DNA from: Escherichia coli
Lineage (GTDB): Bacteria > Pseudomonadota > Gammaproteobacteria > Enterobacterales > Enterobacteriaceae
Direction: 5' to 3' (one strand)
Length of the DNA stretch: 64,000 nucleotides
Assembly (NCBI RefSeq): GCF_003790525.1
Contig: NZ_CP033635.1
Below are positions 28,730 to 58,240 of the stretch, piece after piece. The position numbers were made by a program, and so were the translations under genes. The notes beneath the pieces are model-generated. The model made no database searches, was not told the origin of the DNA, and saw only the letters and a program-made list of their open reading frames with translations. How positions within the stretch are numbered: the stretch's first letter is position 1; each line of letters starts with the position of its first letter.

Positions 28730-30238
<1,509 letters not shown>

Positions 30239-30282: not shown

Positions 30283-30319
30283 GCAGAGGGCAATCAGTGA
30301 TTGCCCTCTGCGTTTTTTC
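30283..30319 (+). terminator. Rho-independent terminator of putP
   Basis: CAGAGGGCAATCA-g-TGATTGCCCTCTG perfect inverted repeat followed by CGTTTTTTCT. Confidence 0.65.
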
Positions 30320-30378
30320 TCAAAATATTTTTACATCTTCTCATCATTATCACTACATTCCACTTGTATTTTTCTTCA

Positions 30379-30397
30379 TCGTAATGATAATCGATAT
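30379..30397. promoter_or_regulatory. Fur-box-like motif upstream of efeU
   Basis: tcGTAATGATAATCGATAT resembles Fur consensus GATAATGATAATCATTATC; efeUOB is iron-regulated. Confidence 0.45.
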
Positions 30398-30457
30398 CAC
30401 TGCGATTTACTTTTCTTTGCATAGATTGACTCAGAAAAACGTTTAAGGGTGGGTGGC

Positions 30458-31288
30458 ATGTTTGTTCCGTTTCTCATTATGTTGCGCGAAGGACTTGAAG
30501 CCGCGCTGATTGTCAGTTTGATTGCCAGCTATCTTAAGCGTACCCAGCGAGGCCGATGGATTGGTGTGATGTGGATTGGCGTGTTGCTTGCCGCTGCGTT
30601 GTGCCTGGGCTTGGGTATCTTCATTAACGAAACCACCGGCGAATTTCCGCAAAAAGAACAGGAACTGTTTGAAGGTATCGTGGCGGTGATCGCCGTGGTG
30701 ATCCTTACCTGGATGGTTTTCTGGATGCGCAAAGTGTCGCGCAACGTCAAAGTACAACTGGAGCAGGCAGTCGACAGCGCATTGCAGCGTGGAAATCATC
30801 ATGGCTGGGCGCTGGTGATGATGGTCTTTTTTGCCGTTGCAAGGGAGGGGCTGGAGTCGGTCTTTTTCCTGCTGGCGGCGTTTCAACAAGATGTCGGGAT
30901 CTGGCCGCCGCTGGGTGCAATGCTCGGTCTTGCTACAGCCGTGGTGCTCGGCTTCCTGCTCTACTGGGGCGGTATTCGCCTCAATCTTGGTGCATTTTTT
31001 AAATGGACCAGCCTGTTTATTCTCTTCGTCGCCGCAGGGCTGGCGGCTGGTGCCATTCGCGCATTTCATGAAGCCGGATTGTGGAACCACTTTCAGGAAA
31101 TCGCCTTCGATATGAGTGCGGTGCTCTCAACTCACTCGCTGTTTGGCACGCTGATGGAAGGGATTTTTGGCTATCAGGAAGCGCCGAGTGTCAGCGAAGT
31201 CGCCGTCTGGTTTATTTATCTCATCCCGGCGCTGGTGGCATTTGTTCTGCCACCACGCGCAGGGGCGACTGCGTCCCGCTCCGTGTAG
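30458..31288 (+). CDS. efeU: Ferrous iron permease EfeU (FTR1 family), apparently intact
   Basis: ATG 30458 (MFVPFLIMLREGLEAALIVSLIASYLKRT...), uninterrupted 276 codons with two REGLE motifs. Confidence 0.85.
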   Translation: MFVPFLIMLREGLEAALIVSLIASYLKRTQRGRWIGVMWIGVLLAAALCLGLGIFINETTGEFPQKEQELFEGIVAVIAVVILTWMVFWMRKVSRNVKVQLEQAVDSALQRGNHHGWALVMMVFFAVAREGLESVFFLLAAFQQDVGIWPPLGAMLGLATAVVLGFLLYWGGIRLNLGAFFKWTSLFILFVAAGLAAGAIRAFHEAGLWNHFQEIAFDMSAVLSTHSLFGTLMEGIFGYQEAPSVSEVAVWFIYLIPALVAFVLPPRAGATASRSV

Positions 31289-31345: not shown

Positions 31346-32473
31346 ATGACCATTAACTTCCGCCGTAACGCATTGCAGTTGAGCGTGGCTGCGCTGTTCT
31401 CTTCTGCTTTTATGGCTAACGCCGCTGATATTCCGCAAGTCAAAGTGACCGTAACGGATAAGCAGTGCGAACCGATGACCATTACGGTTAACGCCGGGAA
31501 AACACAGTTCATTATTCAGAACCACAGCCAGAAGGCGCTGGAGTGGGAGATCCTGAAAGGCGTGATGGTGGTGGAAGAGCGGGAAAATATCGCCCCTGGC
31601 TTTAGCCAGAAAATGACGGCGAATTTACAGCCTGGCGAATACGATATGACCTGCGGTCTGCTGACTAACCCGAAAGGGAAGTTGATCGTCAAAGGTGAGG
31701 CAACGGCGGATGCGGCGCAAAGTGATGCGCTGTTAAGTCTTGGTGGTGCAATTACTGCATATAAAGCGTATGTCATGGCGGAAACCACGCAGCTGGTGAC
31801 CGACACCAAAGCCTTTACCGACGCGATTAAAGCAGGCGATATCGAAAAAGCGAAAGCACTGTATGCGCCGACGCGCCAGCACTATGAGCGCATTGAACCG
31901 ATTGCTGAACTGTTCTCCGATCTGGATGGCAGCATTGACGCCCGTGAAGATGATTACGAGCAAAAAGCCGCCGATCCAAAATTCACCGGTTTCCACCGTC
32001 TGGAAAAAGCATTGTTTGGCGACAACACCACCAAAGGGATGGATAAGTACGCTGACCAGCTTTATACCGATGTGGTCGATTTGCAAAAACGCATCAGTGA
32101 ACTGGCTTTCCCACCTTCAAAAGTGGTCGGCGGTGCAGCCGGACTGATTGAGGAAGTGGCAGCCAGCAAAATCAGCGGTGAAGAAGATCGCTACAGCCAC
32201 ACCGATCTGTGGGATTTCCAGGCTAACGTTGAAGGCTCGCAGAAAATTGTCGATCTGCTGCGTCCACAACTACAAAAAGCGAATCCGGAACTGCTGGCAA
32301 AAGTCGATGCCAATTTCAAAAAGGTCGATACCATTCTGGCGAAATACCGTACTAAAGACGGTTTTGAAACCTACGACAAATTGACCGATGCTGACCGTAA
32401 TGCGCTGAAAGGGCCGATTACTGCGCTGGCGGAAGATCTGGCGCAACTTCGCGGTGTGCTGGGGCTGGACTAA
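31346..32473 (+). CDS. efeO: Periplasmic iron uptake protein EfeO (cupredoxin / M75 peptidase-like)
   Basis: 375-aa ORF with signal peptide [26 protein letters not shown]. Confidence 0.9.
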
Positions 32474-32478
32474 GCGTT

Positions 32479-33750
32479 ATGCAGTATGAAGATGAAAACG
32501 GCGTGAATGAACCGTCACGCCGACGTTTACTGAAAGGGATTGGTGCGTTGGCGCTGGCGGGAAGTTGTCCGGTCGCTCATGCACAAAAAACGCAAAGTGC
32601 ACCGGGCACGCTTTCACCGGATGCGCGCAGTGAAGCGCAGCCGTTTTATGGCGAACATCAGGCGGGTATTCTGACGCCGCAGCAGGCGGCAATGATGCTG
32701 GTGGCGTTTGATGTGCTTGCCAGCGATAAAACCGATCTTGAACGGTTGTTTCGCTTGTTGACTCAGCGTTTTGCTTTTCTGACTCAGGGCGGAGCGGCAC
32801 CAGAAACGCCAAATCCGCGCCTGCCACCACTCGATTCCGGCATTCTTGGCGGCTACATTGCGTCCGATAATCTCACCATAACGTTATCGGTGGGCCATTC
32901 ATTGTTTGATGAGCGGTTTGGCCTTACACCGCAGATGCCGAAAAAGTTGCAGAAAATGACGCGTTTCCCCAACGACTCGCTGGATGCGGCGTTATGTCAT
33001 GGTGATGTGTTGCTACAAATTTGCGCCAACACCCAGGACACGGTGATCCATGCGCTGCGCGATATCATCAAACACACGCCGGATTTGCTCAGCGTGCGCT
33101 GGAAGCGGGAAGGGTTTATTTCCGATCACGCAGCGCGTAGTAAAGGCAAAGAGACGCCGATAAATTTGCTGGGTTTTAAAGACGGCACAGCCAATCCCGA
33201 TAGCCAGAATGCGAAGTTGATGCAAAAAGTGGTGTGGGTGACGGCAGATCAGCAGGAGCCTGCGTGGACAATCGGTGGCAGCTATCAGGCGGTGCGGTTG
33301 ATTCAGTTTCGGGTGGAGTTTTGGGACAGAACGCCACTGAAAGAACAGCAGACGATTTTTGGTCGCGACAAACAAACTGGTGCGCCGCTGGGCATGCAGC
33401 ACGAGCATGATGTTCCCGATTACGCCAGCGATCCGGAAGGGAAGGTGATCGCGCTGGACAGCCATATTCGGCTGGCGAATCCCCGCACGCCAGAGAGTGA
33501 GTCAAGTCTGATGCTGCGTCGTGGCTACAGTTATTCACTGGGCGTCACCAACTCCGGGCAACTCGATATGGGGCTACTGTTTGTCTGCTACCAACACGAT
33601 CTGGAAAAGGGCTTCCTGACAGTACAAAAAAGGTTGAATGGCGAGGCGCTGGAGGAATATGTCAAACCTATCGGTGGCGGCTATTTCTTTGCGCTGCCGG
33701 GTGTGAAGGACGCGAACGATTATCTCGGAAGCGCATTATTGCGGGTTTAA
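32479..33750 (+). CDS. efeB: Dye-decolorising (DyP-type) peroxidase EfeB, Tat-secreted
   Basis: 423-aa ORF with twin-arginine motif [16 protein letters not shown]. Confidence 0.9.
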
Positions 33751-57413: not shown

Positions 57414-57980
57414 TTATACTCCATAGTCAGATGACGACTTTCCCAGCATGCGCTTCAGAGTGTCGTCTTTATCGATGAAATGATGCTTCAGGGCCATAAA
57501 TCCATGCATAACGGACAGTACTACGACGCTCCACGCGAGCCAAAAATGCAGGGCACCGGCAAAGTCAGCCTGTGCGCCAGCGTCGGCGAGGGTCGCGGGG
57601 ACGTCAAACCAGCCAAAAACGCTGATCGGTTTACCATCGGCAGTTGAGATCAGATAGCCGCTGATGCCGATGGCGAACAGCAATAGGTACAATGCGAGAT
57701 GTCCAGCCTTTGCGCCAAGACGAGTCATTGACGAATAACTTTGCAGCGGACCCGGCGGTGGAGATATGACGCGCCACAGAACGCGAATAACCAGCCCCAT
57801 CATTAACAAAATACCGATGCTTTTATGCAGTTCGGGTGCTTTGTGATACCAGCCATCGTAATAACTGAGCGTGACCATCCACAGACCTAAAGCAAACATG
57901 CCGTAGACAATAATTGCGCTTATCCAATGTAAGGCCGCAGATATAACACCATAGCGTTCAGGGGTATTTGTGAATGACAT
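57414..57980 (-). CDS. yceJ: Cytochrome b561 homologue YceJ
   Basis: ATG at 57978-57980 (MSFTNTPERYGVISAALHWISAIIVYGMFALGLWMVTLSYY...), 188 aa. Confidence 0.85.
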   Translation of the reverse strand: MSFTNTPERYGVISAALHWISAIIVYGMFALGLWMVTLSYYDGWYHKAPELHKSIGILLMMGLVIRVLWRVISPPPGPLQSYSSMTRLGAKAGHLALYLLLFAIGISGYLISTADGKPISVFGWFDVPATLADAGAQADFAGALHFWLAWSVVVLSVMHGFMALKHHFIDKDDTLKRMLGKSSSDYGV

Positions 57981-58240
57981 AAGTGCATCCAAAACGAATT
58001 TGCGAGAGAAAGAAAATGGCGTGTCGGAGAATGAATTGCAACACAAAAATAACAAATCGAATGATATTTATTTTTATTTCAATAATTTTGAATTAATAAT
58101 GAAAGAATCTTCATAAGTTTAGTGGGTTCAGCATCAGAGATGTCTGGTGAGTGCTGTTGAAGCAGGAATAATCTCATTCAATTTTTCACGCTAAATGAAA
58201 GGGAGATTAAATATTTGTCAGTTTATGTCAGTGCGGAAAA

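Follow-up and report, generated by a model that had tools for sequence, protein, structure and literature searches.

A previously documented Fur operator in the promoter of an intact efeUOB operon of Escherichia coli

The efeUOB genes and the mapped promoter

The window analysed here, a stretch of 64,000 nucleotides of Escherichia coli DNA (contig NZ_CP033635.1), carries the three genes of the efeUOB operon on its plus strand. The first of them, efeU (30458..31288), codes for a protein of 276 aa that is annotated as EfeU by RefSeq, matches the Pfam FTR1 domain with E = 3e-89 over profile positions 1-283 of 284 and displays two REXXE motifs, both of the form REGLE, at residues 10 and 129. The efeU gene of K-12 is a pseudogene with a 1-nt deletion at the place of window position 30563, and this deletion is absent in the window. 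The first-pass annotation of this DNA had described efeU as intact, which is borne out by the full-length FTR1 domain, the presence of both REGLE motifs and the lack of the K-12 frameshift. The second gene, efeO (31346..32473, plus strand), encodes a protein with full-length Cupredoxin_1 and Peptidase_M75 domains (cupredoxin plus imelysin domains), and the third, efeB (32479..33750, plus strand), encodes full-length N- and C-terminal domains of a Dyp-type peroxidase. As judged from the reading frames, the efeUOB gene set is thus complete for what is predicted to be a functional transporter operon.

The coding sequence of putP, the gene upstream, stops at 30238. Beyond it, an intrinsic terminator hairpin (30283..30311, plus strand) with a 13-bp stem, a 3-nt loop and a T-run delimits the regulatory region of efeU on its upstream side. 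The putP-efeU spacer is present in its short form of about 219 bp, in which the putP terminator runs directly into the efeU promoter, and it has an A+T content of 62%. It is 100% identical to the spacer of E. coli SMS-3-5 (NC_010498.1), whose RefSeq gene order is putA, putP, efeU, efeO, efeB, phoH, whereas the K-12 spacer is 542 bp long and includes REP-like sequence. No more than 1205 of 5417 E. coli genomes cover the short form over at least 80% of its length, and the part of the spacer from about 30330 onward is common to all E. coli genomes compared.

The transcription start of efeU has been mapped in K-12 to NC_000913.2 position 1080520, giving a 5'UTR of 59 nt and a promoter string that ends in ...GATAATCGCTATCA (Kim et al. 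2012, PMC3415461 supplement). Since the K-12 sequence corresponds to that of the window from the Fur box, in which 18 of 19 bases are shared, down to the ATG, with an identical downstream 5'UTR, this start can be transferred to the A at 30399 (plus strand). The -10 hexamer GATAAT (30386..30391, -13..-8, plus strand) agrees with TATAAT at 5 of 6 positions, ends 7 nt upstream of the start and is located inside the Fur box. The element TTGTAT (30364..30369, -35..-30, plus strand), separated from GATAAT by a spacer of 16 nt, fits the K-12 start as its -35 element. The mapped promoter was missing from the output of a consensus promoter scan because this -35 element matches the consensus at just 3 of 6 positions. 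Further downstream, the Shine-Dalgarno sequence AAGGG (30445..30449, plus strand) lies 8 nt upstream of the ATG, and TAAGG is conserved in the alignments. Base-resolution coordinates were in this way obtained for the promoter, the operator and the elements of the 5'UTR in the window.

The consensus promoter scan returned a single candidate, TTTACA (30330..30335), an 18-nt spacer and TACATT (30354..30359), which matches the consensus at 9 of 12 positions and would start transcription near 30366. If this upstream promoter drove the operon, Fur bound downstream of it would act as a roadblock to the elongating polymerase and promoter occlusion would play no part; the conservation of TTTACAT in about 95% of the loci compared across genera could be taken to favour such an arrangement. 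However, the only experimentally mapped K-12 efeU start is the equivalent of 30399, so that the candidate from the scan is unsupported by a published transcription start. Moreover, the upstream -10 sequence is poorly conserved, reading AACATT in K-12 and missing from Erwinia, Winslowiella and Cedecea, whereas CTTGT-n16-GATAAT does not vary across the aligned genera. We regard the roadblock as very improbable, and the promoter that starts at 30399 is taken as the efeU promoter in what follows.

Register, score and chance level of the Fur operator

The first-pass annotation had pointed to a Fur-box-like 19-mer in front of efeU. The 19-mer tcgtaatgataatcgatat is found letter for letter at 30379..30397, 61-79 bp upstream of the efeU ATG (30458), and the coordinates of the box proved good to within 1-4 bases, depending on the model of the site. 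Against the classical 19-bp box GATAATGATAATCATTATC, the best register is 30380..30398, one base to the right of the earlier frame, with 15 of 19 matches. A search of both strands of the 64-kb window for GATAATGATAATCATTATC with up to 4 mismatches returned the efeU site as its sole match, where shuffled sequences would be expected to give 0.2. With up to 3 mismatches allowed, the same search of the window gave zero matches, as the efeU site departs from the classical consensus at 4 positions and is missed at this threshold; the analysis therefore turned to a weight matrix and to a search for the 7-1-7 motif. The 7-1-7 motif TGATAATnATTATCA was found at 30385..30399 with 2 mismatches, and this is the only match with up to 2 mismatches in the window.

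The weight matrix was built as a symmetric 19-bp model from 16 experimentally supported MG1655 sites, either footprinted or gel-shifted, with the efeU site excluded. The training sites were rebuilt on MG1655 from the coordinates in Table 4 of Chen et al. 2007 (PMC2189734), those of cir and exbB being corrected by 2 bases. With this matrix, the sequence AATGATAATCGATATCACT at 30383..30401, centred on 30392, reached 21.3 bits and ranked second in the window, and the training sites themselves, scored by leave-one-out, ranged from 16.4 to 28.5 bits with a mean of 22.0. The Fur scan by which the first-pass annotation had proposed to examine its box therefore gave a high score, one that falls within the range of validated sites, and the K-12 orthologue that differs from it by one base is bound by Fur in ChIP experiments. 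Based on the matrix score, the orthology and the conservation described below, the element is listed as a single-dimer 19-bp Fur operator at 30383..30401 without assigned strand.

The highest-ranking match of the window, AATGATATTTATTTTTATT (58060..58078, 22.4 bits), is located 89 bp upstream of yceJ (ATG at 57980, minus strand), a gene of the cytochrome b561 family in the yceJ-yceI operon. Chen et al. reported a Fur cluster of 20.6 bits at yceJ (PMC2189734), and a Fur peak at yceIJ is known from ChIP-exo in E. coli W. The coincidence of the top match with the published yceJ cluster indicates that the matrix works as intended. A moderate match, GATGATATCTATTCTCGCT (17518..17536), was observed in the intergenic region of the divergent genes wrbA and ymdF; its score of 12.6 bits is above the cutoff of 10 bits applied to Fur sites by Chen et al. 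(PMC2189734).

A resemblance to the Fur box could come about by chance, since GATAAT or TATAAT is common to the Fur box and to the -10 hexamer of sigma-70 promoters, and an AT-rich -10 region within intergenic DNA of 62% A+T might mimic the box, with its 4 mismatches to the classical consensus, while Fur does not act there at all. The exact tail probability of 21.3 bits is about 4e-8 per position under a uniform background, and even under an AT-rich background it amounts to only 8e-7 per position and to 1.6e-4 over the 219-bp spacer; when the whole window was shuffled 200 times with its dinucleotides preserved, 2 of the shuffled sequences attained this score. Furthermore, conservation across genera extends to all 15 core positions, beyond the hexamer alone, and ChIP peaks as well as derepression in fur mutants have been reported for other strains with a near-identical site. 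A chance likeness is thus extremely unlikely, and the agreement of the three tests (consensus, 7-1-7 and matrix) places the efeU motif far beyond chance, in favour of a genuine Fur operator.

Relative to the transferred start, the operator covers -16..+3 and overlaps both the -10 hexamer and +1, so that the assignment of the box to the efeU promoter by the first-pass annotation agrees with the mapped K-12 start (PMC3415461 supplement). The classical Fur boxes, among them those of entC, fhuF, fecI, fepA-fes, cirA and fhuA, show the same 9-1-9 / 7-1-7 inverted repeat TGATAATnATTATCA and likewise overlap the -10 and +1 of a sigma-70 promoter, and the efeU score lies in their range. With our matrix, two positive walkers were obtained, at 30392 and 30408, with a span of 35 bp. 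At the efeU operator, a single strong dimer site is accompanied by walkers that are only weak (1.2 bits at +16, below 0 at -6). This differs from many siderophore promoters, in which arrays of 3-6 overlapping Fur sites are found.

Conservation of the operator and of the neighbouring blocks

Conservation was assessed by footprinting on the GTDB species representatives with EfeU, which provided 80 loci distributed over some 20 genera of enterobacteria. These included Escherichia, Citrobacter, Kosakonia, Enterobacter, Klebsiella, Raoultella, Kluyvera, Leclercia and Lelliottia, and further Trabulsiella, Yokenella, Pluralibacter, Buttiauxella, Cedecea, Erwinia, Winslowiella and others. In every one of the 80 loci, the highest-scoring matrix site among the 300 bp preceding efeU was placed 63-69 bp before the ATG; its score was at least 15 bits in 79 of them, and the left half of the site, AATGATAATC, was invariant. 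Accordingly, the efeU sites of other Enterobacteriaceae and Erwiniaceae, such as Citrobacter, Klebsiella, Enterobacter, Kosakonia and Erwinia, share both the place at -63..-69 and the half-site AATGATAATC with the operator of the window. When the 80 distinct upstream regions were aligned, the Fur core emerged as the most conserved intergenic block (1.90 bits per column), compared with averages of 1.14 bits per column for the whole 160 bp and 0.77 upstream of 30363. Other conserved blocks were CTTGT, TTTAC..TCTTTGC..TTGAC (30406..30431), the Shine-Dalgarno sequence and TTTACAT (30330..30336). CTTGT (30363-30367), which extends into the -35 element, hardly varies among the 80 loci (1.80 bits per column), and the -10 hexamer GATAAT is unchanged in every aligned genus.

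Variation was noted at two neighbouring positions of the operator. At 30393, the consensus base A, present in most other genera, is replaced by G in Escherichia, a difference that costs about 2.7 bits. Most other genera accordingly read CAC at the centre and to its right, within AATGATAATCACTATCACT, and reach 24.0 bits, whereas Escherichia reads CGC or CGA and reaches 21.3 bits, which makes for a slightly weaker predicted site. At 30394, the A of the present window is a minor allele (56 of 5426 complete E. coli genomes), C being present in 5160 of the genomes; the predicted Fur scores of the two alleles, obtained with our own matrix, are equal (21.33 vs 21.31 bits). K-12, O157 and CFT073 all have C where the window has A. 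The K-12 site of efeU (ycdN), AATGATAATCGCTATCACT, has the same matrix score and occupies the orthologous place, centred 66 bp before the ATG and covering -16..+3, and AATGATAATCGCTATCACT is carried by CFT073 as well. The strains differ, however, in the gene that follows: the K-12 operator precedes an efeU with a 1-nt deletion and that of CFT073 an efeU (NC_004431.1 1114528..1115359) flagged as frameshifted by RefSeq, as in K-12, whereas the operator of the window precedes an intact efeU.

Directly downstream of the operator, the conserved stretch 30406..30431 (+8..+33) holds on its minus strand three putative CpxR-like tandem pentamers, GTCAA-n5-GCAAA-n5-GTAAA, with a phasing of 10 bp. The sequence GCAAAGAAAAGTAAA differs from GTAAAn5GTAAA by 1 mismatch, and the CpxR-like blocks are conserved across genera at 1.73 and 1.70 bits per column. 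Over the whole window, the CpxR consensus showed no enrichment (6 matches vs 3.75 expected), and the assignment to CpxR is therefore based on conservation and on the literature, not on statistics. As negative control of efeU by CpxR has been reported in the literature, the pentamers at 30406..30431 may be the sequences through which it is exerted.

With such repeats adjacent to the box, the conserved block might be seen chiefly as the operator of CpxR or of another metalloregulator, with Fur in a secondary role; in addition to the negative CpxR control, deletion of MtnR is also reported to raise efeU expression. The CpxR-like repeats nevertheless form a separate conserved block that does not overlap 30383..30401, and the block at 30383..30401 scores like footprinted Fur sites and is bound by Fur in ChIP experiments on other strains. 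It is hardly conceivable, in our estimation, that Fur is the secondary regulator at this block, and the identification of 30383..30401 as the Fur operator is retained.

On the upstream side, TTTACAT (30330..30336, -69..-63 from the start) is conserved in about 95% of the 80 loci and is followed in many genera by TCATCATT, the two together spanning about -69..-50 (window 30330..30350). By the matrix, no conserved Fur site was found in the TTTACAT block, which lies outside the mapped promoter. The neighbouring sequence TTCTCATCATTATCA (30338..30352), a 7-1-7 match with 3 mismatches, was considered as an upstream Fur operator and discarded, with a score of 0.6 bits and more than 3 bits at the offset in only 5 of 81 loci. 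It may be speculated, as a rather unlikely proposal, that TTTACAT is the operator of a further regulator of efeUOB, for which MtnR could be a candidate in view of the effect of its deletion on efeU expression, and that the G of Escherichia at 30393 and the rare A at 30394 tune the affinity for Fur and thereby the iron threshold of derepression.

Fur binding in other strains and expected regulation of the intact operon

The regulation of efeU has reportedly been treated in primary papers by Cao et al. in 2007 and by Price and Raivio in 2009. The match, its significance, its conservation, the promoter geometry and the intactness of the genes were established in the sequence analysed here, and the transcription start, the occupancy by Fur and the derepression in fur mutants are drawn from the literature on other strains. 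Chen et al. list the ycdN (efeU) site at NC_000913.2 position 1080513 with 20.1 bits, 2 walkers and a length of 35 bp (PMC2189734, Table 4). After coordinate conversion, the centre of this site coincides with the counterpart of window position 30392, and the pattern of two walkers over 35 bp is reproduced by our matrix. In MG1655 under iron-replete conditions, the Fur ChIP-exo peak P28 covers 1080516-1080528 (Gao et al. 2023, PMC10164565 supplement), which maps to window 30395..30407. In CFT073, Fur ChIP-seq gave a strong peak with an enrichment of 1620 and its centre at 1114470 (PMC7157518 supplement), 58 bp upstream of the efeU ATG and thus at about window 30400. The retention of the Fur site and its strong ChIP signal in CFT073 and K-12, in spite of their efeU pseudogenes, imply that the operator is maintained without an intact first gene.

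The consequences of Fur loss for expression have been described as well. In a fur mutant of CFT073, efeO was derepressed 56-fold and efeB 37-fold (PMC7157518 supplement), and both genes are derepressed in the fur mutants of nine E. coli strains, whose Fur core regulon includes them, by log2 changes of 1.06-7.67 (PMC10164565). In the ExPEC strain O78-9, a Fur box at efeU was identified with the PRODORIC matrix (PMC4145685), and efeU is induced by serum. The site is thus already known, having been described in both K-12 and CFT073 and predicted in further strains, and the motif in the efeU promoter of the window is this already documented Fur operator, an ordinary part of the well-understood iron regulation of E. 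coli. Occupancy by Fur and iron- or Fur-dependent expression would be expected in the present strain and for its allele by extension from these other E. coli strains, nine of them in the case of expression.

Taken as a whole, the motif most probably serves as the Fur operator of the efeUOB promoter and mediates repression by promoter occlusion when iron is sufficient, a reading to which we assign a probability of roughly 0.93. When iron is plentiful, the Fe2+-Fur dimer would bind the 19-bp site at 30383..30401. As the operator contains both the -10 hexamer GATAAT and the start at 30399, bound Fur is expected to exclude RNA polymerase and so to repress efeUOB; we infer occlusion as the mechanism, and its transfer to the present strain and allele, from this geometry and from the strains discussed above. 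When iron becomes scarce, Fur would lose its metal and dissociate, allowing efeUOB to be transcribed, and the products of the operon would be EfeU, a permease of the FTR1 type, EfeO, a periplasmic protein, and EfeB, a Dyp peroxidase.

With efeU, efeO and efeB all intact in this strain, the Fur switch should control a working transporter, and an intact EfeUOB system behind a Fur-controlled promoter is expected to be switched on under iron limitation. This ferrous-iron uptake system would accordingly behave as in O157:H7 and would not be cryptic as it is in K-12. Beyond the correct annotation of the locus, the significance of the operator is small: the promoter is a canonical Fur-controlled one and is probably controlled by CpxR too.

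Two further observations concern genes elsewhere in the window. According to the annotation of SMS-3-5, a DUF2726 gene and a tRNA-Ser gene are located at about 35720..36590, between phoH and ghrA; expression and peak tables show that in K-12-type strains pgaD, pgaC and pgaB come right after phoH, with ycdT and ghrA further on. The phoH-ghrA interval has the look of a strain-specific replacement at a tRNA gene. The gene of the TMAO sensor kinase TorS (about 3036..5779, minus strand) is a frameshifted pseudogene according to the RefSeq annotation of SMS-3-5.
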